A DNA stretch of 64,000 nucleotides. Origin: a phage. A program made the translations under genes and the position numbers. Under the pieces are notes generated by a model. The model made no database searches, was not told where the DNA came from, and worked only from the letters and a program-made list of their open reading frames with translations. Positions 19,256-61,568 of the stretch are shown here, piece by piece (position 1 is the first letter of the stretch; each line of letters opens with the position of its first letter). The stretch lies in sequence record OZ336096.1; one strand, 5' to 3'.

Positions 19256-20428
19256 ATGGCAGTAGGTGAAATTCAAATTAGTGCCTTGCCTCAAGCAGCC
19301 TTACCAATTGAACTTAGTGATATCTTCCATCTTAAGCAGGGTATTGAGGATAAGAGATGTACTCTTGAGCAATTACTTGCTCCACACTCAAGCCTAAGAA
19401 ATAACCCTCATGGTGTTACTAAAACACAAATTGGTTTAGATAATGTTATTAACGCTCTTCAGTTAGTTGCTGCAAATAACTTATCAGATATTGTTAATGT
19501 AGCTGAGGCAAGAGCAAATCTACAGATTATGTCTTCAGAAGAGGTTAATAACCTTGTTCAACAGCATATTAATGATAAGAGTAACCCACACAATACAACT
19601 AAGGCACAGGTAGGGTTGAGTAATGTTCAGAACTGGACAACGTCGAACCTTTATAACGAAGATGCAGATAAGTATGCTACAGCAAGAGCAGTAAATAACT
19701 TGTACAAGGCTGTTCAGGCTTCTTATCCAGTAGGTACTATCCATCTCTCTATGAATCCTGCAAACCCTTCTACATATTTAATTTGTGGAGGAACTTGGGA
19801 GTTAGTTTCAAAGGGTAGAGCGTTGGTTGGTTATGACTCTGATACAAGACCAGCAGGTTCTGTATTTGGTGCTTCAACTGTCACTTTGTCAGTTAATAAT
19901 ATGCCTCAACACTCTCACTCTGTATCTCTTAGTGGTGGTGGTCATACCCATAATGCAACTGTGTCAATTTCAGCTTTTGACTATGGAACTAAGACTACCA
20001 ACTCTTTTGACTATGGAACAAAGGATACTAATACAACGGGTAACCATACGCACAACGTATCAGGTAACACAAGTACAAATGGTACTCACAACCACGATGT
20101 GTACCCTAGAGAAAATGATGGTACTGGTAATGCTGTAGCTGACTCCGATGGTGGTGGTGCAAGAAGAACATCAAGGACATCTAGTGATGGTGCACACTCA
20201 CATAGCTTTAATGTTACATCTGGTGCATCCGGTGACCACAGCCACACAGTCGGTATTGGTGCTCACAGCCACACAGTTGGTATTGGTTCACATACACACA
20301 GTGGTACTGTGACAGTTTCTTCTTCTGAGCATACACATAGTGGTAATACGAATAGTGTTGGTGGAGGTCAGGCAGTTAATATTGAACAGCCATCCTTTGT
20401 ACTGTATGTATGGCAGAGAACAGCTTAA
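19256..20428 (+). CDS. tail fibre protein with His-rich HxH tip
   Basis: 390-aa ORF; C-terminal region rich in HSHS/HTHN/GAHSHTVGIGAHSHTV repeats like T4 gp37/gp12-type metal-binding fibre tips; followed by terminator. Confidence 0.7.
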   Translation: MAVGEIQISALPQAALPIELSDIFHLKQGIEDKRCTLEQLLAPHSSLRNNPHGVTKTQIGLDNVINALQLVAANNLSDIVNVAEARANLQIMSSEEVNNLVQQHINDKSNPHNTTKAQVGLSNVQNWTTSNLYNEDADKYATARAVNNLYKAVQASYPVGTIHLSMNPANPSTYLICGGTWELVSKGRALVGYDSDTRPAGSVFGASTVTLSVNNMPQHSHSVSLSGGGHTHNATVSISAFDYGTKTTNSFDYGTKDTNTTGNHTHNVSGNTSTNGTHNHDVYPRENDGTGNAVADSDGGGARRTSRTSSDGAHSHSFNVTSGASGDHSHTVGIGAHSHTVGIGSHTHSGTVTVSSSEHTHSGNTNSVGGGQAVNIEQPSFVLYVWQRTA

Positions 20429-20437
20429 TTTCTTTAC

Positions 20438-20460
20438 AGGGGCTTGAAAGCCCCTTTTTA
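20438..20460 (+). terminator. rho-independent terminator after first tail-fibre gene
   Basis: Perfect 8-bp stem AGGGGCTT/AAGCCCCT followed by TTTTT. Confidence 0.8.
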
Positions 20461-20474
20461 GAGGAAAATTTATA

Positions 20475-27426: not shown

Positions 27427-28527
27427 TTACTCATAATCCCTAATAACTAGCCCTACAGGAAACTGTAAAGAACCCTTACGAGTCATCTTCTGGAACTGAA
27501 CAGTTAAAGGTTTCCCGATAAACTCTTCAGGATGCTCAGCAAGATACTGTTTCTTCTCATGAGTAGTCTTCCATGATACATCTACAAAGACGTTAGGAAG
27601 AGTCTCTACAACGAACTTGCCATGACCACGCTTATCAGTCTTTACACCAGTCACTTTAAACTCTTCAGTGTGCATCTTCTTGTGCTTAATCAAGAAGTAT
27701 GAACGGTGACAGCACTCATAGAAGGAGTCTTCAGAGATTGAACGGTACATTGCACCTTCAAACTGAGCTTCAACCCACTTATCATGGGCTTCATCAAACT
27801 CTTCCCAAGAATTTACACGGATAGTCTGTACAGGAACCACTCTACAGGTATCCCCAAGCTCAACAATAGGTGAACTATCAATAACTTCACGACGCTCAGG
27901 CCAAGATTTTGAATTGTCACAGATATCATACCAGTAGAATTTAAGAAGGTGACGGTCTGGATTGTCAGCATTCTTAATCATAGACACAATATCTTCTAAG
28001 TCCTGCCCATGAGCATAAATCTCACCATCAAAGTCTTCAACTTGTGGATGTAATTTAAGCAACAAAAGCAAATCTGGAATTAGTTCTGCTGGAACGTTGT
28101 AAACAGTATTCTCACGAGAATAAGCTGTGAAACTAACTGTATCAGCATCTCTTGAAATTCTACAACGTACACCATCAAGTTTTGGTTGAGCATCAGCAGG
28201 GAACTTCAAATACTTTGCATGGCTAACCTTTGCAGCATCATGAGCAAGCTGTACACCTACCTTCTCAGTATTCTGTGCAGACTCTTTTGTATAAGCATAA
28301 CCTTTACGGTCAACTTGCTTTTTATACTTAGCAGCAACTTCAAAGAGAGCTTGCTGTTCAGCGTTACGCTCATTCTTTTTACCGATGTTTTTAGGTTCTG
28401 CTGTATACTCTTCAAACATCATCTTGCCATTTTCTTTACCGTAGGTTGTAATAACTTTGTCACCTACAGCAACACATGACCAAACGTTAAAAGAGCCATC
28501 TTTATTTTGTTTGTACAGTATTGTCAT
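27427..28527 (-). CDS. ATP-dependent DNA ligase
   Basis: 366-aa ORF containing the ligase adenylation motif KLDG (PKLDGVRC). Confidence 0.85.
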   Translation of the reverse strand: MTILYKQNKDGSFNVWSCVAVGDKVITTYGKENGKMMFEEYTAEPKNIGKKNERNAEQQALFEVAAKYKKQVDRKGYAYTKESAQNTEKVGVQLAHDAAKVSHAKYLKFPADAQPKLDGVRCRISRDADTVSFTAYSRENTVYNVPAELIPDLLLLLKLHPQVEDFDGEIYAHGQDLEDIVSMIKNADNPDRHLLKFYWYDICDNSKSWPERREVIDSSPIVELGDTCRVVPVQTIRVNSWEEFDEAHDKWVEAQFEGAMYRSISEDSFYECCHRSYFLIKHKKMHTEEFKVTGVKTDKRGHGKFVVETLPNVFVDVSWKTTHEKKQYLAEHPEEFIGKPLTVQFQKMTRKGSLQFPVGLVIRDYE

Positions 28528-29349: not shown

Positions 29350-29400
29350 ATAACCTCCTATATAAGATACAGTATAAGGTACTCTTCCCTGAGCACCTTG

Positions 29401-29934
29401 TCAACTTAGTTTTGCAAACTCTCCGTGGAGTTTAATAGCAGCTTCACAGTAAGCTTTATGGGCTTCTTCAGGGGTGTCATGGTGACCTAAAAACATCTTC
29501 TTACCTTTATAACTTATCTGTGCGACCCACTTACCAGACTTCTTCTTAAGACTTACACCCTTGTACCCAGATTTATTGGTGACTGGTTTACCTTTATTCC
29601 AAGCACTTTGAAAATCATCTGCTTCCCTTAAGTTTACAATCCTGTTGTCAAGCGAGTCTCCGTTGATATGGTCAATGATACCTTTTGGCATCTTGCCATA
29701 CACGTAAAGCCATGCGAGTCTGTGTGCTTTATGTGCTTTCTTGTCAAAATAGATACTAATCTGTTTATGACCACTTGAATCAGTCTGGATATTACCTGCC
29801 ACCTTTCCTGCATAATTACTGTTAAAAACACTAACAGCTCTTGATTTACCTTCTCTACGAAGCCAAGTAAAGACCCCTGTTTCGGGGTCATAGTGCAGCA
29901 GCTCCTTTAAACGTTTTTGTAAAATTAAGTCCAT
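29401..29934 (-). CDS. HNH-AP2 homing endonuclease (free-standing)
   Basis: HNH motif (IDHINGDSLDNRIVNLR) followed by AP2-type DNA-binding domain (YKGVS...KWVAQISYKGKKMFLGHHDTPEEAHKAY); sits immediately 3' of DNA polymerase exon 2. Confidence 0.8.
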   Translation of the reverse strand: MDLILQKRLKELLHYDPETGVFTWLRREGKSRAVSVFNSNYAGKVAGNIQTDSSGHKQISIYFDKKAHKAHRLAWLYVYGKMPKGIIDHINGDSLDNRIVNLREADDFQSAWNKGKPVTNKSGYKGVSLKKKSGKWVAQISYKGKKMFLGHHDTPEEAHKAYCEAAIKLHGEFAKLS

Positions 29935-30494: not shown

Positions 30495-30762
30495 CATCTG
30501 GTCAATACACTCGCAAGGTGTACCAGTTCTCTTATGAACTTCTCCGCATTTCTACGGAGTGTCGGACTATATCACGTAGTAGTAATACTACCGTTGCACT
30601 TGGGAATGGTCATTAGCTTACCACCCTACTCTACTCAGTTCATACATTAAGTATGCTTTTCGATAGTCTCTGAACGTTCCTCTTAAGAGGCTTCGCTGCT
30701 GATTACCATATCTTTTAAGACTTAGGCTTCCAGCAATTCACAACGTTTTACATGCGCCACTG
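30495..30762 (-). ncRNA. group I self-splicing intron (ORF-less) in DNA polymerase gene
   Basis: Conserved group I elements read on the sense strand in order P (AATTGCTGGAA; + coords 30728-30738), Q (AATCAGCAG; 30696-30704), R (GTTCAGAGACTATCG; 30661-30675), S (GATATAGTCC; 30564-30573); proposed boundaries put U at the 5' exon end, G at the intron end, and restore motif B as IYALLFGAGDEK; exact splice sites are inferred. Confidence 0.7.
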
Positions 30763-32935
30763 ACGCATAGATGCCATTTTTGCTCTTCTTACGACCTTTT
30801 GTAATCTCGTGAAGAAGTTCCTCATCCTGTGTCTCCCTACAACGAACAATATCTTCTTCCTTGTTCAGACCAAAGTAAATACTGTTCAGTGTATGCGCAT
30901 CAGTCCCTGTGTAGACTTCATAGAGGTCGTTCTCAGCATCATAACGAAGATACTTGTCAGTTTCTGGATTAAGATACTTATCGAGATGCTTGCAATAGTA
31001 TCTTCCATCCTCTTGCTTAGTGAACTCTACTGACTCTTTACCCTCAGTTACTGCTTTAGTGAAGTCTTCATCACCCATAAAGTTACAAAGAAGAACTAGC
31101 TGGGCTGAGTTCTGGTCAACGGAAACGATGTTAGTCCCCTCCTCACAAATCCACACCTCCCTCATAGGTGCTCCATAGACAGCAGCACCAGACGGTACGT
31201 TTACAATACCATATTGCGTCATACGTCCAGTTGAAGTACCAAACACCATTGCACCAGCACTAAGGCGACCATCTGGACGAATCTGGTTCAACCAACCTTT
31301 TTCATCATCCTTTGAGTTCTCAATAGTCCTGCGTCGGTGCATCAAAGTATAGTACTTAGCAATCTTCTGTCCAAGCTCACCTTCAATCGTATCATAAGAT
31401 GATTCAGTAAGTTTTGGTGAAGTACGGATTAAGCAAGGCTCAAGCAAATCTGTGTACTTCTTCACAGACCAGTTATGTTCAATGTACTGGACACCTTCAT
31501 GTTCAACATAACTCAAGCCGCACCGTTCAACCATCTCCTGCCACTTAGGATGCTTTGTAATCATCTTTTTGTTGTCTTTGAAACGACAAACTTTGACAGG
31601 GCGACCATCTGAATCTTTCTTGTAGTTCCAGTCATCTGGAATCCAGCCAACTGATTTCAAGTAGTCTTTAACAACTGCTACTTGAGTCATACGAGAAACT
31701 TCAAACTCAATTGGTGTATATGGTGCATCAATCAATCCTGTGTAGCGACTTGACTCCAGTCCAAAGTGGTTAACAACATGACTGTTATAGTACTTCACAG
31801 TTTTAACTGTTTTTACTGGCTTCCAGTCTTTGCATTTCTTACCAATCTTTGCGTTCAACTCATTGCAAATTGCACGAGCATCCTTCATTGCTACAAAACC
31901 CTCCTTGTACTCTTCACCAGTTACAGAGTTGGTTGGCGTATAGCAATTTCTCTTTTCAATGTTAAAAATCTTTGTAGTTGGCTTACCAAATGGTTTGATT
32001 TCGTATGTCTGCATCTCACCGTTACGTACCTGCTGACGATACTTTGTCTTAGGGTACTTGGTAATCCTCTTCAGTCCATCTGCATGACCAAATGTTTCAA
32101 CATACTCATTCCAAGCTTTTGCAAACTCTTCTCCAGTGACTTTACCTTTGGTCTTAATAGTTGGAGGAAGATGTGGTTCAACCTCTGAAGCAAGCTCATT
32201 AGTCAACTTGTCAAGTTCCTTTACATGGAACTCCATAAGTTCTTTATCAGCTTTCCAACCATTGATAGCTTGTTGACTCATCCAGAAAGATGTTTCTTTA
32301 GCTCGCATGTAGGTTTCATAAGTGTCTATGCCACACTTCTTAAGCTTGAGATACTCATTATCAAGTGCCCGTTTAGTTTTGGCGTTAATACGGATATCTT
32401 CTACAACACGAGTGAAGATTTCTGCATTCCACACACCCCAATGTTCAATCTCTGGTTTACGAACACCAACACGAGCACCCCATGCAGCCAAACCATGAGC
32501 ACCTTTATAACCCTTTGGAGTTGGTCTATCCATCCACTGAACACGAGACTGGATAAGAGAATCCTGAAAGAAGTTACTCCACGGTTTACACTTTGGATTA
32601 TCAAAGTTCCATAAATCAGGTGCAATGTGGTTGAAAACCCACCAGTCATAACCGAGACCATTATGGATGCAAAGACGTTTTGCCTTTAACGCAAACTCAA
32701 CACCTTCACGCAAACCACCCTTAATGTACTTGGTATACTTGTGACCGAGGATAGGCTCGTCTGTAAAGACCCATACAGGTGGCTCTTCATCGTCAGATTT
32801 ATAGTCTGCAAAGGCCATTACGTGAACTTTAGTGAACTCAAGGAGTAAACCATCAGTTTCTGTATCACCAACCAAATGTAAGTTTTTAAAATCTACGTTT
32901 TCCATTTTTACTCCCTCTAAAATCATTAACCACAT
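30763..32935 (-). CDS. DNA polymerase (family A, T7-like), exon 1
   Basis: 3'-5' exonuclease Exo I motif DTETDG near N-terminus; ends in first half of motif B (RKKSKNGIYA); probable true start at the ATG for MENVDFK (~32905); the listed ORF's last 13 codons are read-through into the intron. Confidence 0.85.
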
Positions 32936-32965
32936 ACATTACTGCAAAAAATTATAAAAAGCAAG

Positions 32966-32995
32966 TTGACAATACACTTGACAAGGTGTTAATCT
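32966..32995 (+). promoter_or_regulatory. putative sigma70-like promoter (TTGACA-18-TAATCT)
   Basis: In the AT-rich divergent intergenic region between the DNA polymerase start and the 33163 gene; -10 is weak; a second TTGACA lies at 32978. Confidence 0.4.
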
Positions 32996-33100
32996 TTGCG
33001 AAGTGGGTTTTTACTTAAAAGGTTACTTAACAGTTTAACTATACAGATACTTTAAAACTCTTAAAAGATTATTTAATAGCTTTTAAAAAGCTTTAAAGTA

Positions 33101-33119
33101 TAACGTATAGAATACGTTA
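33101..33119. promoter_or_regulatory. operator-like inverted repeat
   Basis: TAACGTAT-AGA-ATACGTTA, perfect 8-bp arms, in the divergent intergenic region. Confidence 0.3.
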
Positions 33120-33162
33120 AGATAAAAGATTAAAACTTAATAGTTACTTAAAAGAGGCTTAC

Positions 33163-37379: not shown

Positions 37380-37788
37380 TAGTTATAAAAGAGAGGGGTT
37401 CACACCCTTCTTTGAAGAAAAAAGTTTAAATAAATTTCAGGATGAGTGTTTGACAAAGATTGATAGGTTCTATAGAATGCTCTACATGAAATGTGATGGG
37501 GGCGTTGAGGTAGAAGAAAAGTTCCATCACAGTATTATTACAGTCACTATTACTATACCTCAGCATAATATTGGTTGGCTGTTTATAATGAAAGAGAATG
37601 TGTTTGAATATCAAGTATATCGGAGAATAGCATGAAACACTCTAAAGCATTTGAAAAAGTTTTTGGGGATTCCTTAAAATCCACTGCTGGAAAACCAGCA
37701 AAATACTATGAAGAAAAACGTGTAAGAACTGGAAAAACTGCACGTAAAGCAGCTTCTAAAGATAAGCACAACTTCCAGTAATTAGTAT

Positions 37789-37817
37789 TTGACAATAGAG
37801 TATCAACAAATTAGAAT
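37789..37817 (+). promoter_or_regulatory. sigma70-like promoter (TTGACA-17-TAGAAT)
   Basis: Consensus -35, 17-bp spacer, 5/6 -10, about 36 bp upstream of the SSB-like gene start. Confidence 0.6.
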
Positions 37818-37853
37818 TGGTACTCTTCATAAATTGAGATAGAGGTTTAAATA

Positions 37854-46087: not shown

Positions 46088-47284
46088 ATGAACAAAGTAC
46101 AAATTATTAAAAAGAATGGCTCACTTGAAGAACCGGATATCAAAAAAGTTTTAGTAGCAGTCACAAAGTCAGCTAACAGGGTTGGTTATAAAGAGCTTCC
46201 ACCAGATGTTACTCAAGCCCTTGAGTCAGCATTTATGAGGATTCTGGTAAAATCTACTAAGCAGAATAATTTACTCGTTTCAGTAAATGATATTCACAGT
46301 ATTGTTGAAGGTGCTTTGGCAGAGGTCAATCACGAGATTTATGAGTCTTACTCAACATACAGAAATTACCGTAAAGAGGTTGCTCAAAATTGGGACGAAC
46401 TCTACCAGAAGACTAAAGATACACTCTTCTTAGGTGACCGTGAAAATGCTAACTTTGACAGCAGTTTAATTTCTACGAAAGGTTCAATTATCCGTGGTTA
46501 CCTGACTAAAGAAATCTTTAAACAGTATCATCTAACACCAGAGGAACTTGAAGCCATTGAGAAAGGCTTTATCTATATCCACGATTTGAGAGACCTGATT
46601 TTTGGTGGTATTAACTGTTGCCTGTTTGACATTGGTAAAGTACTAAAAGGTGGCTTTGAAATGTCCGGCATTGAGTACTGTGAACCTAAATCTGTACTGT
46701 CAGCGTTGCAGGTTATCGGTGACGTAGTACTTTCAGCAACTGCACAGCAATTTGGTGGATTTACTTTAGCAGAGATTGATAAGGTACTTGTACCGTATGC
46801 TAAGAAGTCTCTACGCTATCATGCTGAGAAAGCAGCATCTTACGGTATTCCTAAAGAACATTACCATAATTATGTCATGGAGCAGCTACAGATTGAATTA
46901 ACTCAAGGTTTCCAGTCACTAGAGATGAAGCTAAATACTGTACCTTGTAGCCGTGGTGATTTCGCATTCACAACTTTAACATTTGGTTTACTTGACTCAG
47001 ACATGTCTAATGAAGACAACCGACTACAATACATGATTGCAAACACCATTCTTGATGTTCGCATGAATGGACAAGGTAAGAGCAAGAAGCCTGTTGTATT
47101 CCCTAAACTGGTTTATATTCATGACCAGAAGAGACACGATGAGAATATCTGTCAAGGTCAACTGTACAGTAAAGCTATTGAGTGTTGCTCTAAAGCTATG
47201 TATCCAGATTTCTTAAGTGTATCTGGTCATGGTGCTGTAGCAGAGGCTTTTGAGCGTTCTGGCAAGGTAATTTCACCGATGGGT
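46088..47284 (+). CDS. nrdD: anaerobic ribonucleotide reductase (class III), exon 1
   Basis: Class III RNR N-terminal region by overall resemblance; ends ...VISPMG just before the intron. Confidence 0.8.
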
Positions 47285-47600
47285 TAACAGGCTCTATAGC
47301 TCATCTAAAACGTGCCTAAACAGGGAAACTCTACAGATGTAGACAATCCTGTGCTAAATGATGTACGATGTAAGAAACTATACAACATAGGAGTCTTACA
47401 TGCCAAATAACTTCGAATATGAGTTTGAATACATCTAAATGCCGAACGACTAACCGTGATGAATGTAGCGGTGTAGGGTCAAGCGACTCGAAATGGTACG
47501 CTACTTAGAAATAAGTAGAAGATATAGTCTGGACTTACTGGCGACAGTAAGCAGCTTGAATAAAGCGGGGTAAGCTTAGCGAACTTACCTGAACAACAAG
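47285..47600 (+). ncRNA. group I self-splicing intron (ORF-less) in nrdD
   Basis: Exon 1 ends in U, intron ends in G; joining gives PMG-CRAFLSP, recalled as conserved in NrdD; intron holds P-like (AAACAGGGAAA, 47318-47328), Q-like (AATCCTGTG, 47345-47353), R-like (GAACGACTAAC, 47444-47454) and S (AGAAGATATAGTCT, 47517-47530) elements in canonical order; no long ORF. Confidence 0.75.
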
Positions 47601-48548
47601 TGTAGAGCGTTTTTATCACCATACCATAACGAATATGGTGAAGAGTTTTATGTAGGTCGTGCTAATATTGGTGCTGTATCTTTGAACTTACCAATGATTT
47701 ACCAGTATTCTAAAGAGAATGGTTTAGATTTCTGGAAAGAGCTTGATAAGTACCTAGAGATGATTCGCAGCTTCCACAAGAAACGCTACGAAATGATTGC
47801 TAATATGCCAGCAAGTTCTAACCCTCTTGCATTTACACAAGGTGGTCTGTACAAAGGGACTAAGAAACCTACTGATAAGGTTGGCTGGGATATTGTGAAG
47901 TCCTTCACAGCTTCTTTTGGGGTTACTGCACTAGACGAGCTATCTGTTCTTGCTGAAGGTAAGCGACTTCATGAAGTTGGAAGCTGTAGTTTTGCATATG
48001 ATGTTCTGGAATATATCAACATAAAGACTGAAGAGTTTAAAAATGAAGATGGTTTCTTATATGCAGTCTATGGCACTCCAGCAGAATCACTTTGTGGAAC
48101 TCAGCTAAAACAGTTCAGAGATATGTTTGGCGTTATCAAAGGTGTTTCTGATAAAGAATACTTTACAAATAGTTTCCATATGAATGTTGCAGCAGACATT
48201 ACACCATTTGAGAAGCAGGACTTAGAAGAACCTTTCTTCCATATCTGTAGAGGTGGCAGAATCCAGTATGTAAGGGTAGCTAACCCAGAAAACTTACCAG
48301 CACTTAAAAGTTGTATTACAAGAGGGATGTTGAAAGGTTTCTATCAGGGACTTAACTTTGACTTAGCAATCTGTGAACATTGTGGTAACAGACCAAAGGC
48401 TGATGTTGAAGAATGTGAGGTTTGCCATTCACACGATATCTCTGTGATTAACAGGGTGTGTGGGTACTTGTCATTCACAAAAATTAAAGGTCAGTCTCGA
48501 ATGAATGACGCTAAGATGGCAGAAATTAAGGATAGGGTTTCTATGTAA
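47601..48548 (+). CDS. nrdD: anaerobic ribonucleotide reductase (class III), exon 2
   Basis: Reading frame open from 47601 (CRAFLSPYHNEYGEEFYVGRANIG...); Cys cluster and C-terminal glycyl-radical motif RVCGYL. Confidence 0.8.
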   Translation, partial: CRAFLSPYHNEYGEEFYVGRANIGAVSLNLPMIYQYSKENGLDFWKELDKYLEMIRSFHKKRYEMIANMPASSNPLAFTQGGLYKGTKKPTDKVGWDIVKSFTASFGVTALDELSVLAEGKRLHEVGSCSFAYDVLEYINIKTEEFKNEDGFLYAVYGTPAESLCGTQLKQFRDMFGVIKGVSDKEYFTNSFHMNVAADITPFEKQDLEEPFFHICRGGRIQYVRVANPENLPALKSCITRGMLKGFYQGLNFDLAICEHCGNRPKADVEECEVCHSHDISVINRVCGYLSFTKIKGQSRMNDAKMAEIKDRVSM

Positions 48549-48610
48549 AACTTGACAAGGTGATGTGGGTCTTGATAGGCTTGCATCACCTTTTTATTTG
48601 GAGTTACACT

Positions 48611-50898: not shown

Positions 50899-51219
50899 AT
50901 GAGCAAAGTTTATAACACTCGTAAATTACAGATTTTCGTACTGTGCCAGTTTATGGCTAAAGAGTATAACTGCTACTATTGCGGTACAGGGTTCATCAGT
51001 GATAATGACGGCTCATATCTACCATTCAAAGAAGCTGTAAAACTCTTTAATGAAGAGAAAAGCTCTAAGAAAGATATTGAAAAGGTTAAACTAACCTACA
51101 GCAAGAAAGATAAGAAGATTATCTGCCTAGATAACTTTGTGAAAGTTACTGGAGAAGCAAAAGAGTTTATGGATGAGAGTGAGATTTCATTCACAAGCAT
51201 CTTGAAAGTAGCTCAGTAA
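50899..51219 (+). CDS. hypothetical protein
   Basis: 106-aa ORF followed by terminator. Confidence 0.4.
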   Translation: MSKVYNTRKLQIFVLCQFMAKEYNCYYCGTGFISDNDGSYLPFKEAVKLFNEEKSSKKDIEKVKLTYSKKDKKIICLDNFVKVTGEAKEFMDESEISFTSILKVAQ

Positions 51220-51231
51220 ACAGATACTATA

Positions 51232-51257
51232 AGGGGACTGTAAAGGTTCCCTTTTTA
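51232..51257 (+). terminator. rho-independent terminator
   Basis: GGGGAC-loop-GTTCCC stem (one G-U) followed by TTTTTATTTT. Confidence 0.6.
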
Positions 51258-54690: not shown

Positions 54691-54699
54691 AAGTTTATA

Positions 54700-54720
54700 G
54701 GGGCTTAAAAGCCCCATTTT
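54700..54720 (+). terminator. rho-independent terminator after prs
   Basis: GGGGCTT-AA-AAGCCCC followed by ATTTT. Confidence 0.75.
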
Positions 54721-55077
54721 GAGAGAGATTAAAAGATGACTAAATCACTTTATGCAGTACCAGCAGGTTTAAACGCAGATGCTTACAAGTCATCGCATAT
54801 ATATCAGTATCCAGATGCTACACAGTATCTTATGCTGAACCTGACGCCACGTAGTGACAAATGGTTTAACAGCCCCTTAGCAATTGATGGTGTAGTAGCT
54901 TTTGGTATTCAACGTTTCGTTAAAGATTACTTGATAGACCACTGGAACGCCACTTTCTTTGAACGTGATAAAAAAGAAGCAATTGACGAAATCTTAGAAG
55001 TCATGAACGGTGTTCTGGGCAAAGATGCTATTGGTCGAGAGCATTGGGAAGCACTTCACGACTTAGGTTATCTGCCA

Positions 55078-55960
55078 GTCGAAGTATACGCTGTAGAAGA
55101 AGGCACAGTTGTTCCAATGCGTGTCCCAATGATTGTCTTCCAGAACACTGTTTCAGGCTTCCATTGGGTAGCAGGTTATCTGGAAGACGCTTTCTCTGCT
55201 GAGATTTGGAAGGCTTGTACCATTGCAACTATTGCATTGCACTACAAACGTATCTGTAAGAAGTGGGCTGACCTTACTTGTGACAACGACTTGCATTTAC
55301 CTTATCAGTGCCATGACTTTGCTATGCGTGGTATGTCCGGCTTTACTGATGACGCATTTAACGCTGTAGGCCACTTAACCAGCTTTAAAGGAACTGATAG
55401 CTTCCCTGCTGTATATACAGCTAAACGCATCTACGGGCAGTCTTACCCAATCTCTGATATTGGTGGTTCTGTACCAGCCACTGAACACTCTGTAATGTGT
55501 GCAAACATTGCTTGGGAAGGTGGTAATGAATTGATTGAAGAAGAAAGACGCTTCAAAGGTGAGTTGCAAACCTTCCGTCGCTTCTTAACAGAGACTTACC
55601 CAACTGGTATTGCAAGTGTTGTTTCAGACACTTATAACTTCTGGAGAACTGTGTCAGAAATCTTACCAGCACTCCGTAAAGAGATTATGGAACGTGATGG
55701 CAAACTGGTAATTCGTCCTGACTCTGGAGACCCTGTACATATTGTCACAGGTTATAAAGCAATCCACTTAGAGTGTGCTAAAAAGGCTTATTACGAGCAC
55801 CTAAGCAAGCTAGAGGCAGGTGATACAATGCTGAGCACCGTCCTGAACATGAAGCTTGAAGATATTAACTATGTTATGGCTGGGTGGTTACGTGCAGAAG
55901 GCTATGAAATGGTGGTTGACAGAGAAGACTTTGAAGTAGCCGATACAGTGTTGCTGAAAG
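55078..55960 (+). repeat. tandem duplication, copy 1 (883 bp)
   Basis: Identical to 55998..56880 at 920-bp offset wherever checked by eye. Confidence 0.85.
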
Positions 55961-55997
55961 CTTCATGTTCAGGACGGTGCTCAGCATTGTATCACCT
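55961..55997 (+). repeat. inverted 37-bp junction segment
   Basis: Exact reverse complement of 55818..55854; abuts the palindromic AAGCTT at the end of copy 1. Confidence 0.85.
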
Positions 55998-56880
55998 GTC
56001 GAAGTATACGCTGTAGAAGAAGGCACAGTTGTTCCAATGCGTGTCCCAATGATTGTCTTCCAGAACACTGTTTCAGGCTTCCATTGGGTAGCAGGTTATC
56101 TGGAAGACGCTTTCTCTGCTGAGATTTGGAAGGCTTGTACCATTGCAACTATTGCATTGCACTACAAACGTATCTGTAAGAAGTGGGCTGACCTTACTTG
56201 TGACAACGACTTGCATTTACCTTATCAGTGCCATGACTTTGCTATGCGTGGTATGTCCGGCTTTACTGATGACGCATTTAACGCTGTAGGCCACTTAACC
56301 AGCTTTAAAGGAACTGATAGCTTCCCTGCTGTATATACAGCTAAACGCATCTACGGGCAGTCTTACCCAATCTCTGATATTGGTGGTTCTGTACCAGCCA
56401 CTGAACACTCTGTAATGTGTGCAAACATTGCTTGGGAAGGTGGTAATGAATTGATTGAAGAAGAAAGACGCTTCAAAGGTGAGTTGCAAACCTTCCGTCG
56501 CTTCTTAACAGAGACTTACCCAACTGGTATTGCAAGTGTTGTTTCAGACACTTATAACTTCTGGAGAACTGTGTCAGAAATCTTACCAGCACTCCGTAAA
56601 GAGATTATGGAACGTGATGGCAAACTGGTAATTCGTCCTGACTCTGGAGACCCTGTACATATTGTCACAGGTTATAAAGCAATCCACTTAGAGTGTGCTA
56701 AAAAGGCTTATTACGAGCACCTAAGCAAGCTAGAGGCAGGTGATACAATGCTGAGCACCGTCCTGAACATGAAGCTTGAAGATATTAACTATGTTATGGC
56801 TGGGTGGTTACGTGCAGAAGGCTATGAAATGGTGGTTGACAGAGAAGACTTTGAAGTAGCCGATACAGTGTTGCTGAAAG
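55998..56880 (+). repeat. tandem duplication, copy 2 (883 bp)
   Basis: Identical to 55078..55960. Confidence 0.85.
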
Positions 56881-57450
56881 ATGCTTACATCAACGGCTCT
56901 GCAAACGTTGTAACACGTCCTGTAGCGGAGATTGATGGAGCTATCAAGACACTGTATAACATCTTTGGGGGAACTATTAACTCTAAAGGGTTTAAGGTAC
57001 TGGATGAGCACATCGGCCTTATCTATGGTGACTCTATCACACTGGAACGTGCAAACGAAATCCTGAAGCGTCTGTATGAAATGGGTTTTGCAAGCTCTAA
57101 CGTGGTGTTTGGTGTAGGTTCTTACACTTACCAGTACATGACTCGTGACACCTTTGCATTTGCTGTCAAAGCAACTCTTGCAAGCATTGGTGGTAAAGAG
57201 ATTATGCTTGCAAAAGACCCTAAAACAGATAGTGGTGTTAAAAAATCTGCCTTTGGTGGTGTAGCACCTATGTGGGATGGTGATAAGCTGAAAGCTGTAG
57301 ATGGCTATGGATTCCAGAGTTTTGCGGATGTACTTGACCACCCAGCTTGTGCTTTACGTTTAGTCTTTAGTGACTCTGAGCAGTTCGGTTACACAACTCT
57401 TGGTGATATTCGAAATAATATTGACAAGCAGCTTTAAAAGTATATGATAA

Positions 57451-57476
57451 GAGGCTCCTACGGGAGCCTTTTTAAT
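57451..57476 (+). terminator. rho-independent terminator after nadV
   Basis: AGGCTCC-TACG-GGAGCCT followed by TTTTTAATTT. Confidence 0.8.
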
Positions 57477-58012: not shown

Positions 58013-60379
58013 ATGCGCATGGTAAACGACCACGCAGAAGTGATTAAGAGTTCAACTTCTTTAGAGACGTCTCAAGCACAGATTACAATGACACCTGAAA
58101 TGTTCAGCCTTTTGAGTTCTGGTGTATATACCTTTAAAGAAAGGGCAGTGATTCGTGAACTGTCATGTAACGCAGTAGATGCTCAGAAAGAAGCTGGAAA
58201 AGAGAATATTCCGTTCCATGTGCATTTACCTACTCGTTTTGAACCTTACTTTGAAGTCCGTGATTTTGGAACTGGATTGACTCATGATAAAGTTATGAGT
58301 TTGTACCTAAACTACGGGGCTTCTACGAAGAATGACTCTAATGACTACATTGGTGCAATGGGTATCGGCTCAAAATCTCCATTTGCAATTGCTCAGTCAT
58401 TCACAGTGTCTAGCTATGTTGACGGTGTTGTTAATAAGTATTCTGTTTATCTTGAGAATGGTATCCCTCAAGTAACTAAGCTGACCACTAACCCAACAAA
58501 AGAACCTAACGGTTTAGCTGTACGTGTGGCAGTTGCTGACCACCGTATTTCAAAGTTCTTTGAAGAGGCTGGTAATGTATACTCATACTTTGCTGTAAAA
58601 CCAGAGAGTAATGTGGAGTATAATGATATATTAGCAGATATGGATGTGATTGCTCGTGAAGAAGGTGTCTATGATGCCATGACTCATAAGCATAGCTGGC
58701 GTTCAAGCAGCAATAGAACAGAGTTTAACGTGGTTATGGGTAATATTGCCTACCCAGTTAATATGGAGGCATTACTTGGTGATGATTTCTTCAAAGTCTT
58801 GCCAGAATTTTTCCGTAGGAGCGTAGACCTTGTAAACATCTACATGCCTATTGGCTCAGTTGCTATTGCAGCTTCTCGTGAAGCATTGCAGATGAATGAT
58901 ACGACAAAAAATGTTATCATTGAGGCTACTAAAAAGATAACTGAAGCGATTACAAAGGATGTTATCAAGAAAGTTAATAGTCAACCTACACTCATGGATG
59001 CTGCACAGGCTTATGCTGAGTTACGCTTGAACTCACGAGAGATGTTTAATGCTGTGTGTCCAAAGCTAGAGTGGGGAGGTGTTAAGCTTGATTCTCTGGA
59101 AGAAGAATTACTAAACATTCGTCGTGGAATTATCTACGCAGAAGACGGCTCAGTCATTTACGAACGTGACGGTAAAGGCAATATTAAGGTTGATAGGAAC
59201 GGGAACAATATACCTAAAGTAGACTACCTTTATGACCCAGTTGCTTATGTCAAGTTCAACTCTTTAGAGAGTAAGATTCGTGCAACATCGCTTTCCTACA
59301 CTCAAGAGGCAAGTATGTTCAATATCTTTGGCGCAATGCGTAAAAGCCAAATTGAACAGTTTTTGTTTGTTATAAACGACCGTCGCAATAAAAATGGTAC
59401 TGAGAAGACTGTAGGACGCAATCAGATTCTGCGTGGTGCATGTCGAGACTATGCCAGTGAGTCTAGTCTGTTTCACAGATACAACGGTATCGTCTTTGTA
59501 TTCTCGACTGAAAAAGAGTTAGACAACCTAATCAATCTGCACAAACTTGATAAAAGCTTGTTAAAGATTGTGAAGATGTCTGATAAGGAACATCATTATC
59601 AGCGTAAAGAAGCTGTAAGAGGTGTTGTAAAACTTTGGAAAGCTGTTCCAGCAGAAGGTGTAGCTTCATACAAAGAGGTGTCAGAAGACTTAGATACGAT
59701 TGAAGAGCCTCAGCTTTATATTAAGGCAGTAGGCGACACAGTTGATGGCGAATGTTTTTGCTCATCTCCAGAAGATGTAGCTAAGTCAGTTGCCAATGTC
59801 ATTGGAAAGACAGTATATGTTTTCCGAAAAGCAAATTGGAAAAAGATACCAGAAGACTGGATTGAAGTAGATGAGAAGCTCTTGAACGACAGCTTAACTG
59901 ATGTTCATTGGATTAATCATAACAGATATATGACACGTATCTATATGAATGGTGTCCTCGACCTTACAAGCAGTTGGATTATTGCCAGAAACTTTACGTT
60001 CAATAACAGAAAGATTTCTCGTGGCTATTGCTATTCACGAGACACAAACAAAACCATCTTCTTAGAAGGTAATGAAGATGCTGTTGAGGCAATGTTTGGT
60101 AAAATCCAATACGTTGCTGCACCGTTTGCATACACTTATACTATTAGTAGATTGCAAACTTTGAAAGAATGTCTTGACAACGATACAAAGCTGTACAAGA
60201 AAATCAAGAAAGCTGGTGACCGTATGGTCATTAAGGTGACAAACTACCTTTCAAAAAGAAAACAAGAAAACTTCTTGCTTTCTCATTTAGATTGGAATAA
60301 AGTGTCACCCATCGAAGTGAGTAAGTTCTTGGGCTTTGATGTGAAGTGTGTTCCAGAAGGGACTACAATTTACGATTAA
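58013..60379 (+). CDS. rIIA: rIIA-like protein with GHKL (Bergerat-fold) ATPase domain
   Basis: 788-aa ORF; N-terminus carries GHKL boxes (ELSCNAVDA; DFGTGL; GAMGIGSKSPFA) as in T4 rIIA; rIIA assignment is by domain and size only. Confidence 0.5.
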   Translation: MRMVNDHAEVIKSSTSLETSQAQITMTPEMFSLLSSGVYTFKERAVIRELSCNAVDAQKEAGKENIPFHVHLPTRFEPYFEVRDFGTGLTHDKVMSLYLNYGASTKNDSNDYIGAMGIGSKSPFAIAQSFTVSSYVDGVVNKYSVYLENGIPQVTKLTTNPTKEPNGLAVRVAVADHRISKFFEEAGNVYSYFAVKPESNVEYNDILADMDVIAREEGVYDAMTHKHSWRSSSNRTEFNVVMGNIAYPVNMEALLGDDFFKVLPEFFRRSVDLVNIYMPIGSVAIAASREALQMNDTTKNVIIEATKKITEAITKDVIKKVNSQPTLMDAAQAYAELRLNSREMFNAVCPKLEWGGVKLDSLEEELLNIRRGIIYAEDGSVIYERDGKGNIKVDRNGNNIPKVDYLYDPVAYVKFNSLESKIRATSLSYTQEASMFNIFGAMRKSQIEQFLFVINDRRNKNGTEKTVGRNQILRGACRDYASESSLFHRYNGIVFVFSTEKELDNLINLHKLDKSLLKIVKMSDKEHHYQRKEAVRGVVKLWKAVPAEGVASYKEVSEDLDTIEEPQLYIKAVGDTVDGECFCSSPEDVAKSVANVIGKTVYVFRKANWKKIPEDWIEVDEKLLNDSLTDVHWINHNRYMTRIYMNGVLDLTSSWIIARNFTFNNRKISRGYCYSRDTNKTIFLEGNEDAVEAMFGKIQYVAAPFAYTYTISRLQTLKECLDNDTKLYKKIKKAGDRMVIKVTNYLSKRKQENFLLSHLDWNKVSPIEVSKFLGFDVKCVPEGTTIYD

Positions 60380-60384
60380 AGTAT

Positions 60385-60414
60385 TTGACAAGGGGCTTTG
60401 AAGCCCCTTAGAAT
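60385..60414 (+). promoter_or_regulatory. sigma70-like promoter with palindromic spacer (TTGACA-18-TAGAAT)
   Basis: The 18-bp spacer is itself a perfect hairpin (AGGGGCTT-TG-AAGCCCCT); upstream of the 60459 gene. Confidence 0.45.
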
Positions 60415-60458
60415 AACCTCACAAAATGATTTATTAACTAACAAGAGAGAGTAACAAG

Positions 60459-61568
60459 ATGACTACTAAAACTAAAGCACAGATTGACGCAGAAATTTAC
60501 AAACTGGTTAAAGAAGGCAAGCTGACTAAAACAGCTATTGCACAGAAGTTCAATACTTCAACCCGTTCAGTTGGTCGTGCTGTAGAGCGCCATGAAGCAA
60601 CCTTAAAGGGTAAGAAAAAGATAGCTTCTAAACCAGCTACGAAGACTTTGAAGCAAGTTGCTAAATCAGTTAAAAAGAAAACTGGAAAACCAGTTGAAAA
60701 GGCCGTTAAAGACACTGTACAAAAGGCTCCGGTAAATAAACTGCATGAAGCTATGCAGAAAGATAACAAGATTGAGTACATGATTACTGGTGACTCTGTA
60801 ATTATGACTTACGGTTCAGAATCTGAAATTGTTGAGTCTACTCATCCGAACTATCAAGAGATTGTAGTTCATGTTGTGAAAGGTGAGTTCAAGAAAGCTT
60901 TCGAACTGATGAACATTCGTAAATCTATCGAAAACTTCACTCAGGGTACTATCACAATCAAAGGTGACAAGTTATTCTACGGTGCTGTTGAGATGCGTTC
61001 TACTCTGGTTGACCGTATTCTTCACATGATGAAGACTGGTGATAAAGGTTTTGAACGACTTGTAATGTTCTTCGAAAAACTGATGGAAAACCCATCTAAA
61101 GACTCTGTAGAACAACTTTGGGGATTTGTATCTCACCTTGATGTTGAAATTGATGAAGAAGGCTACATCATTGGTTGGAAGAAAGTCTCTACTCGTGAAG
61201 GCAAGCTGGTTGACTCTCACACCTACAAAGTACCTAATGATTTGGGTAACATTGTAGAAATGCCACGTTGGATGGTTGATAACAACCGTAACGTGACTTG
61301 CTCTCAGGGTCTTCATGTTGGTGCTTGGGACTATGTCCGTTGCTTCTCAGGTGATACAATCCTGAAGGTTCGTGTCAATCCACGAGATGTTGTATCTGTT
61401 CCGACTGATTACAACGATATGAAGATGCGTTCATCCCGTTATGAAGTTGCAGCAATCGTTGATAATCAACGTAAAGTGCTGAAAGCATGGGATGGTAAGA
61501 CTGAGGCTTTGCATGTCATCGTTGGCACTGATGGCGAACTCATCTCTCAACGTAAGCGTGAAATCTAA
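60459..61568 (+). CDS. hypothetical protein (possible rIIB-like partner)
   Basis: 369-aa ORF immediately downstream of the rIIA-like gene; no diagnostic motif recognised. Confidence 0.3.
   Translation: MTTKTKAQIDAEIYKLVKEGKLTKTAIAQKFNTSTRSVGRAVERHEATLKGKKKIASKPATKTLKQVAKSVKKKTGKPVEKAVKDTVQKAPVNKLHEAMQKDNKIEYMITGDSVIMTYGSESEIVESTHPNYQEIVVHVVKGEFKKAFELMNIRKSIENFTQGTITIKGDKLFYGAVEMRSTLVDRILHMMKTGDKGFERLVMFFEKLMENPSKDSVEQLWGFVSHLDVEIDEEGYIIGWKKVSTREGKLVDSHTYKVPNDLGNIVEMPRWMVDNNRNVTCSQGLHVGAWDYVRCFSGDTILKVRVNPRDVVSVPTDYNDMKMRSSRYEVAAIVDNQRKVLKAWDGKTEALHVIVGTDGELISQRKREI

Follow-up and report, generated by a model that had tools for sequence, protein, structure and literature searches.

Introduction

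Elements that combine an early promoter with a stem-loop are known from T4-type phages, where they are called promoter-early stem-loops (PeSLs). In RB49/phi1, PST and nt-1 they consist of an early sigma-70-like promoter with a stem-loop situated either between the −35 and −10 boxes or over the −10, and promoter and terminator activities as well as mini-circles have been shown experimentally (Arbiol et al. 2010, PMC2839356; Comeau et al. 2014, PMC4122927). We found no report of PeSLs in the Ounavirinae; in the literature searched, the seven papers that mention PeSLs together with phages cover, by their titles, T4-type, KVP40-type and cyano-phages, a jumbo-phage review and unrelated work on Yersinia LPS, and none deals with Felix O1-like phages. 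Coupled promoter/terminator sites have also been described in bacteria (bioRxiv 10.64898/2026.08.19.745784). A second point of comparison is phage T4 itself, in which rIIB has its own promoters, PrIIB1 and PrIIB2 (Hinton 2010, PMC2988021, Table 1).

According to the Felix O1 genome paper, neither the timing of transcription nor the way in which it gets past the numerous terminators is known; five promoters are named, with no rIIB site among them, and neither a phage RNA polymerase nor sigma-modifying factors are reported (PMC3185647). Here we describe a site between rIIA and rIIB in which a predicted sigma-70-type promoter has a stem-loop fitted exactly between its −35 and −10 boxes, and which we relate to a family of repeated cassettes in the Ounavirinae that resemble PeSLs. 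This link appears to be unreported.

The rIIA–rIIB junction

The 64-kb window (the whole stretch of DNA analysed) makes up the greater part of the genome of a myovirus that resembles Felix O1 and belongs to the genus Felixounavirus (Ounavirinae). The 4 kb surrounding the site have matches in 276 phage records, the closest relative being Phage NBEco005 (97.5% identity), and the neighbouring genes are annotated in matching records as rIIA (58013–60379; no Pfam match) and rIIB (60459–61568), with the site in the 79-bp gap between them (Table 1). The initial annotation had described a TTGACA-18-TAGAAT arrangement at 60385–60414 with a wholly palindromic spacer, and this is exact; the hexamers match the sigma-70 consensus at 11 of 12 positions. 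One extra base pair, formed between A60390 (−35) and T60409 (−10), extends the palindrome. A loop of only 2 nt cannot form for steric reasons, so the fold is one of 8 bp with a 4-nt loop (60390–60397 paired with 60402–60409). Predicted energies are −14.2 kcal/mol for the RNA, folded within 51 nt of context (z = −2.8), and −8.2 kcal/mol for the DNA.

The palindrome is not a chance occurrence. By simple arithmetic, a perfect 8-bp inverted repeat is expected in a given spacer with a probability of about 4^-8 (1.5e-5), so that the 184 promoter-like sites in the window should yield about 0.003 of them. Its core, GGGGCTT-NN-AAGCCCC, is present in three copies in the window (20439, 54700 and 60392; expected 0.00), and the upstream motif (A)TAAAGTAT is common to the repeated cassettes described below and to promoters at 37445 and 37784. 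Rfam 15 has nothing for the site, whether the window is scanned at the gathering score or 60250–60550 at E <= 1, and the matches returned are at chance level (16–19 bits against cut-offs of 39–55).

Table 1. Coordinates of features at the rIIA–rIIB junction and at related sites in the window.
Feature	Coordinates	Strand	Basis
rIIA stop TAA (60377–60379) followed by AGTAT, forming the upstream motif (A)TAAAGTAT	60377–60384	+	sequence
−35 hexamer TTGACA	60385–60390	+	sequence, conservation, existing promoter annotation
Promoter spacer AGGGGCTT-TG-AAGCCCCT, 18 nt, perfect 8+2+8 palindrome	60391–60408	+	sequence
Predicted stem-loop AAGGGGCU-UUGA-AGCCCCUU	60390–60409	+	folding; stem conserved, loop variable
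−10 hexamer TAGAAT (TAAAAT in some relatives)	60409–60414	+	sequence
Predicted transcription start, an A, 7 nt past the −10	60421	+	inferred from standard sigma-70 geometry
Shine-Dalgarno-like GAGAGAG and rIIB start ATG at 60459	60445–60461	+	sequence
Sister copy TTTACA-GGGGCTT-GA-AAGCCCC, then TTTTT; terminator-like; between tail protein and tail fibre genes	20433–20462	+	
Sister copy TTTATA-GGGGCTT-AA-AAGCCCC-ATTTTG	54694–54722	+	sequence, profile match
AGTGTTTGACAA-N17-TAGAAT, promoter-like; same class as the next site, without hairpin	37450–37478	+	
AGTATTTGACAA-N17-TAGAAT, promoter-like; −10 (37812–37817) in loop of hairpin 37797–37826	37789–37826	+	
TTGACAAGGTG site after nrdD: TTGACA, 18-nt spacer, TGa-TAGGCT (48573–48581) in loop of 16-bp hairpin 48557–48592, T-run	48552–48600	+	
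TTGACAAGGTG site: TTGACA, 17-nt spacer, TACCTT in 3′ arm of hairpin 29399–29376	29376–29404	−	
TTGACA-16-TATGAT abutting terminator hairpin 57449–57472; composite promoter/terminator upstream of the rIIA block	57421–57472	+	

A predicted promoter for rIIB

The proposal that this element serves as a promoter for the gene at 60459 is borne out, at the level of a predicted promoter, by its conservation and by the predictions of others. The comparison drew on the junctions of 30 contigs from IMG/VR and of six relatives from GenBank, which cover Felixounavirus, Suspvirus and Mooglevirus and have 76–97% identity in the rIIB protein. Among the 17 distinct junction sequences from these three genera, the best-conserved part of the gap is the block from −35 to −10, and its variants (TTGACT in one relative, TAAAAT, and a 17-nt spacer in Susp- and Mooglevirus) are all compatible with a promoter; the rIIB 5′UTR, in contrast, diverges freely. 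A regulatory feature of GenBank MZ726792 (2298..2327) covers the same 30 bp and is annotated as a promoter, and Table S1 for UAB_Phi87 lists the same promoter, TTGACA/CCTTAGAAT, at position 27,984 (PMC4837284). Both entries thus agree with the site at 60385 in the 30 bp, the hexamers and the gene pair, but they are pattern-match predictions that are silent on the palindromic spacer, the hairpin and the cassette family. As a promoter the site has already been annotated by others and is hence not new; taken alone it is an ordinary one, and what is added here is its cassette context.

Expression data from Felix O1 are in keeping with this assignment. By RT-PCR, ORF2 (rIIB) peaks at 10 min and ORF1 (rIIA) at 25 min (PMC3185647), a timing that fits a separate rIIB promoter, although these are end-point gels and are only suggestive. 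The literature searched, partly by poorly targeted queries, yielded no study that mapped the 5′ or 3′ ends of transcripts for any Felix O1-like phage. T4 and the Felix O1-like phage would thus be alike in having a promoter of its own for rIIB, downstream of rIIA; the T4 promoters, however, are of the MotA/AsiA-dependent middle type, with a MotA box replacing the −35, whereas the site at 60385 has a consensus −35. We consider it likely that 60385–60414 is a host sigma-70-type promoter of rIIB.

Conservation of the hairpin and the question of termination

The hairpin had also been suggested to act in a terminator-like manner on upstream transcripts. It is real and conserved, and its 8-bp GC-rich stem has the stability expected of an intrinsic terminator, but its 3′ tail, UAGAAUAA, contains 2 U in 8 and forms no U-tract. 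Canonical rho-independent terminators have such a tract, as do the sister copies at 20433 and 48552. The site hairpin is called neither by a terminator scan of the sequence, nor in the TransTermHP/WebGeSTer annotation (MZ726792), nor in Table 2 of the Felix O1 paper (PMC3185647), and all three of these sources call the U-tract terminator just after rIIB. Given the tail and these omissions, the hairpin would be at best an attenuator or a stabiliser of RNA ends. It is probably not a canonical terminator, and any termination that it causes may be negligible. The bacterial coupled sites (bioRxiv 10.64898/2026.08.19.745784) offer a lead: those sites, together with canonical terminators, are like the present one in that a GC-rich hairpin at a gene end overlaps the next promoter.

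Comparison across lineages indicates what is retained. The stem is kept in three genera while the loop changes, being TG or CA in Felixounavirus and GCAA or GAAA in Susp- and Mooglevirus; the stem is invariant within the three genera taken together, with no covariation, apart from a G-to-A mismatch in the 3′ arm that is tolerated in two relatives (L008 and L029). In Kolesnikvirus the same junction has GGGCUG-GAAA-CAGCCC, with other but paired arms and a GNRA-type loop; TTGACA is absent, and a TTAATG-17-TACAAT lies upstream instead. In L030, a contig from further afield, TTGACA-17-TCTAAT is combined with another hairpin that covers the −10, and a Hafnia phage has neither promoter element nor hairpin at this junction. 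Since the stem is kept as the loop varies, and a U-tract is lacking in every one of these lineages, it seems to be in RNA that the structure matters, though not as an efficient terminator. We conclude from these comparisons that the predicted stem-loop is under selection; that it has a role in RNA is about as likely as not.

The TG and CA loops of Felixounavirus (60399–60400 here; L003, L007, L010, L017 and others) correspond to two alleles of the 18-nt spacer, each the exact reverse complement of the other, a sign of palindrome-mediated inversion or template switching.

A family of repeated cassettes in the Ounavirinae

In SUSP1 and NBEco005, a cassette of about 90 bp is repeated before almost every small hypothetical gene in the region just past the end of the window. 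Its general form is ATAAAGTAcTTtACA-n-GGGGCTTA...TAnnnT-AAGCCCC, the arms enclosing the spacer and the −10. There are two types. Type 1 is ATAAAGTACTTTACA-n-GGGGCTTA-N8-TAnnnT-AAGCCCC-AGATAAAGAGC...SD-ATG. In type 2 the −35 is followed, after a 17-nt spacer, by TAAATT or TAAAGT with ACTNATCAAC, and then by a GGGGAGG...CCTCCCC hairpin. NBEco005 has 6+5 copies, SUSP1 seven and one Mooglevirus contig ten.

Several observations relate the rIIB site to type 1. The site can be written TAAAGTATTTGACA-A-GGGGCTT-TG-AAGCCCC-TTAGAAT, and type 1 has the same 3′ arm and, two mismatches aside, the same 22 nt at the 5′ end; in the site the loop is collapsed and the −10 is placed past the stem. A profile built from 38 type-1 copies, all from other phages, has its best match in the window at 60375–60405 (E = 0.0014), followed by 20427–20450 and then 54698–54717. 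The latter two are the sister copies of Table 1, both of which are followed by T-runs. At 60392, 20439 and 54700 the same arms are 2 nt apart, against 13 nt in the cassettes.

The conservation of the cassettes resembles that of sigma-70 promoters. In 41 unique type-1 copies from 12 loci, TTTACA, the 17-nt spacer and the first, second and sixth positions of the −10 are all invariant, and the −10 appears as TAAGAT, TAAAGT, TATCTT, TAGTAT, TAGGAT, TATAGT or TACAGT; fixation of T1, A2 and T6 with free middle bases is the textbook sigma-70 pattern. The cassette arms are paired in 97% of cells. At one arm position, 11 of the 22 distinct sequences have U.G and 10 have C-G, and the U.G combination can pair on the + strand only. 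The gap-free alignment contains no double-sided compensatory change, and the shuffle control carries no information because most pairs never vary, so covariation support for the cassette hairpin is not claimed. What is left in support of the predicted hairpin is the strand-specific U.G/C-G alternation, register-shifted variants of the arms and, at 37797, a single compensatory difference that separates the window from SUSP1.

Members of this family have been recorded before in another guise. Felix O1 has a 57-bp repeat, CTTTACATGGGGCTTAAAAGTCTGTAAAGTAAGCCCCAGATAAAGAGC..., and a 39-bp repeat, TTGACACTGG...TTAAATTACACATCAAC, both listed as direct repeats (Whichard et al. 2010, PMC3185647). The 57-bp repeat is the present cassette family and the 39-bp repeat its second type; they were listed with no promoter or hairpin reading and with no tie to the rIIB site. 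Felix O1 genes 16, 20 and 21, which lie downstream of repeats, peak at 5 min (PMC3185647).

A further repeat, ...TTTCATTTTCAAnnTGTGCAGnT..., occurs in several copies in 500–600 bp of non-coding sequence before the ORFan block (L039 6581–7215 in NBEco005; L038 20695–21198 in SUSP1), and the NBEco005 stretch also holds a duplicated promoter-like unit, TTGACT-...-TAATAT.

Gene gain and loss at cassettes and comparison with PeSLs

Alignment of related phages places gene differences at the cassettes. In NBEco005, a gene at L039 7981–8238 lies between two type-1 cassettes and is absent from L193, which has a single chimeric cassette at the junction; similarly, three genes between two type-2 cassettes (L039 10513–11677) are absent from L223, where a chimeric cassette is left. 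As judged by alignment, the cassettes bound differences in gene presence and absence.

These arrangements closely parallel those of PeSLs. In both, a sigma-70-type early promoter and a GC-rich stem-loop share one short intergenic element (seen here at the site and in the 41 copies), the element is repeated many times before small ORFan genes in a variable region, and recombination between copies would add or remove a gene and leave one chimeric cassette, as at the indel junctions above. They differ in that the cassettes belong to the Ounavirinae and not to the lineage of the T4-type PeSLs, their sequence is unrelated and specific to the Ounavirinae, and their activities are here predicted from sequence. 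With lineage and sequence different, a cassette may be said to work like a PeSL but not to be a member of that group. The rIIB copy departs further from PeSLs, since it lies between two conserved genes with no shuffling and is not itself one of many copies beside ORFans.

It may be that the Ounavirinae have their own independent PeSL-like mobile family which drives the gain and loss of small early genes, the elements at rIIB, 20433 and 54694 being domesticated derivatives; we see the case for this as standing at about even. If true, the stem-loop would be a general insulator, with each early gene on its own promoter and read-through RNA attenuated or trimmed, and recombination hot spots formed by promoters and stem-loops would not be peculiar to T4-type phages. 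The family offers concrete and testable candidates for early promoters with insulating stem-loops in a phage group widely used in typing and biocontrol. For the engineering of Felix O1-like phages, the cassettes mark natural points of insertion and deletion and would supply ready-made expression signals.

Proposed role of the rIIB element and alternative readings

We propose that host RNA polymerase with sigma-70 starts a separate rIIB transcript near 60421. The stem-loop, fitted exactly between the −35 and −10 boxes, lies upstream of this start and would form only in read-through RNA from rIIA; rIIB's own transcripts would be free of it. In read-through RNA it may cause the polymerase to pause or, in part, to stop; it may instead define or protect the 3′ end of rIIA mRNA after processing, and in either case expression of rIIB would be uncoupled from that of rIIA. 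The rIIB element would then be a compact, fixed copy of the Ounavirinae promoter-plus-stem-loop cassette. As a whole, this combination of a rIIB sigma-70 promoter, a stem-loop acting on read-through and a compact copy of a PeSL-like cassette is the explanation that, on balance, we favour.

The promoter component could be questioned on the grounds that a consensus scan of 18 kb returns 54 promoter-like sites against 44 ± 7.6 in shuffled sequence, that an 18-nt GC-rich spacer is suboptimal for sigma-70, and that the start site is a predicted one; the site would then be an inactive look-alike, with rIIB made only through read-through from upstream promoters such as that at 57421. We think this improbable, as the 60385 site is one of just three 11/12 matches in those 18 kb, its hexamers and spacing are kept across genera while adjacent bases drift, the cassette family shows the TAnnnT conservation described above, and rIIA and rIIB of Felix O1 peak at separate times. 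Little credence can likewise be given to the opposite extreme, an efficient intrinsic terminator of rIIA transcripts that leaves rIIB wholly reliant on the embedded promoter. The stem is GC-rich and stable, an identical stem followed by TTTTT at 20439–20459 resembles a true terminator, and the stem-loop of a T4-type PeSL equalled rrnB T1 in a reporter (PMC2839356; PMC4122927). The tail of the site hairpin and its omission from three terminator predictions speak against such efficiency, however, and no lineage has gained a U-tract, even Kolesnikvirus and L030, whose hairpins are free of the −10 constraint at that position.

Other readings place the function of the palindrome in DNA. The hairpin could be the leftover of a mobile cassette, with no function in RNA, that serves as a DNA recombination substrate (as proposed for PeSLs) and is kept along with the promoter. 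Family copies do bound gene indels, the U-tract is absent and a stem mismatch is tolerated in two relatives, and the reverse-complement loop alleles point to palindrome-driven DNA events; we nevertheless regard this as unlikely, because the rIIA–rIIB pair is fixed, with no mosaicism at the junction in 30+ genomes, and the stem survives in three genera as its flanks diverge. Kolesnikvirus, too, retains a hairpin at the same junction even though its arms differ, its loop is of GNRA type and TTGACA is missing, so that selection would act on the structure as such. A perfect 8+2+8 inverted repeat between −35 and −10 is also in the classic position for the duplex operator of a dimeric repressor, its half-sites recur at 20439 and 54700, and the repressor might even be rIIB, residues 10–45 of which have a weak helix-turn-helix match (PF13542, E = 0.0014). 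That match, at 18.5 bits, is under the Pfam threshold of 27.4, and the difference in arm spacing between the three compact sites and the cassettes favours a hairpin over a protein operator of fixed spacing. Moreover, half of the distinct cassettes have a T.G pair, which makes sense only if the + strand is present as single-stranded nucleic acid, and GNRA-type loops occur in three genera, so that an operator seems very improbable. Promoters for the virion RNA polymerase of coliphage N4, a phage-encoded enzyme, are extruded single-stranded hairpins that have no −35 or −10 boxes. The site at 60385 is similar to these in having a short hairpin within a promoter but differs in its near-consensus sigma-70 boxes, and an N4-type hairpin promoter was ruled out because no phage RNA polymerase is reported for Felix O1 (PMC3185647).

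The TTGACAAGG word and its other sites

The initial annotation had further noted that the word TTGACAAGG recurs at 32978, 48552 and 60385, and had suggested a shared promoter class. These three copies are present, but a fourth, on the minus strand at 29404–29396, had been missed; four copies compare with 0.75 expected, and none of 100 shuffles reached four. An 11-mer, TTGACAAGGTG, accounts for three of them (29394–29404 on the − strand, 32978–32988 and 48552–48562 on the + strand; expected 0.06) and is not found at 60385. The word therefore lumps two sub-families, TTGACAAGGTG and TT(G/T)A(C/T)A-GGGGCTT, the latter represented at 60385, 20433 and 54694. It recurs because the −35 box butts against a stem starting AAGG, which pairs with a CCTT leading into a T-run or −10. 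TTGACAAGGTG is conserved in other genera and two of its copies start hairpins; a shared role in binding some factor is possible.

The suggestion of a promoter class survives in part. At 48552 and 29404(−), TTGACA abuts the 5′ arm of a hairpin and a weak TAnnnT lies at 17–18 nt. The site at 32978 was ruled out as a promoter of the same class, having no −10 at 16–18 nt and no comparable hairpin, and the true sequence relatives of 60385 are of two other kinds: cassettes of the form TT(T/G)ACA-n-GGGGCTT and, at 37450 and 37789, promoters of the form AGTrTTTGACAA-N17-TAGAAT. Within the window, AGTrTTTGACAA-N17/18-TAGAAT, at 37450, 37789 and 60385, is a better class for the rIIB site. The SUSP1 homologue of the 37789 site keeps its architecture, with compensatory changes in the arms.

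The 32978 copy itself sits in a conserved stretch of tandem TTGACA hexamers in the divergent intergenic region at the DNA polymerase gene. Upstream of it, the TTGACA at 32966 is followed at a distance of 18 nt by TAATCT, and SUSP1 conserves the entire stretch.

The two remaining TTGACAAGGTG sites differ in their distribution. Across 20 distinct relatives the loop of the 48552 hairpin, CTTGATAGGCTT, never changes, whereas the stem does so in a compensated manner. This cassette is kept across three genera and is followed in different phages by at least four unrelated genes (loci L041–L067), which marks it as a mosaic junction; in other phages a homing-endonuclease-like gene replaces it. The ORF that precedes it in the window (47682–48548) was considered as a homing endonuclease and ruled out, as tblastn identifies it as nrdD exon 2. 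At 29404(−), a 9-bp hairpin abuts TTGACA, and the TACCTT in its 3′ arm is TACCAT in one relative; the upstream context of this cassette takes two different forms, and other phages lack the cassette. A TATACT located 22 nt from this TTGACA was rejected as the −10 since relatives have TATACA.

Promoter-like sites abutting terminators and additional features

At two positions a promoter-like sequence (51202–51230 and 57421–57448) has a −10 that stops precisely 1 nt short of a terminator hairpin with a U-tract, the composites spanning 51202–51253 and 57421–57472; the 57421 site is also listed as a UAB_Phi87 promoter (PMC4837284). A transcript started at either would be without most of the 5′ arm and would therefore escape termination. 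Overall, 4 of 18 + strand hairpins have promoter-like sites beside them where about 1.3 would be expected, which is marginal, and only the two cases with 1-nt spacing stand out.

Two group I introns (RF00028) are present in the window. One, at 30542–30774 (−; 64.5 bits), splits the DNA polymerase gene into exons at 32935–30764 and 30495–29938; the other, at 47201–47551 (+; 52.7 bits), splits nrdD into exons at 46088–~47290 and 47601–48548. Both genes are uninterrupted in SUSP1.

A tandem direct repeat at 55075–56914, with 920 nt from start to start and at least 300 nt at 100% identity, lies within a nicotinamide phosphoribosyltransferase gene, which it splits into two overlapping ORFs (residues 1–427 and 114–606 of the SUSP1 protein). 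The repeat may be a genuine duplication or may have arisen during assembly.

Finally, the short repeated words CTTAAAAG, CTATAAAG and TTGTTAG/TTGTTAA crowd the divergent intergenic region at 32936–33162 and a region of NBEco005 past its last ORFan (L039 13150–14273). The latter overlaps the published terminal-repeat sequence of UAB_Phi87, and the words are possibly replication or packaging signals.
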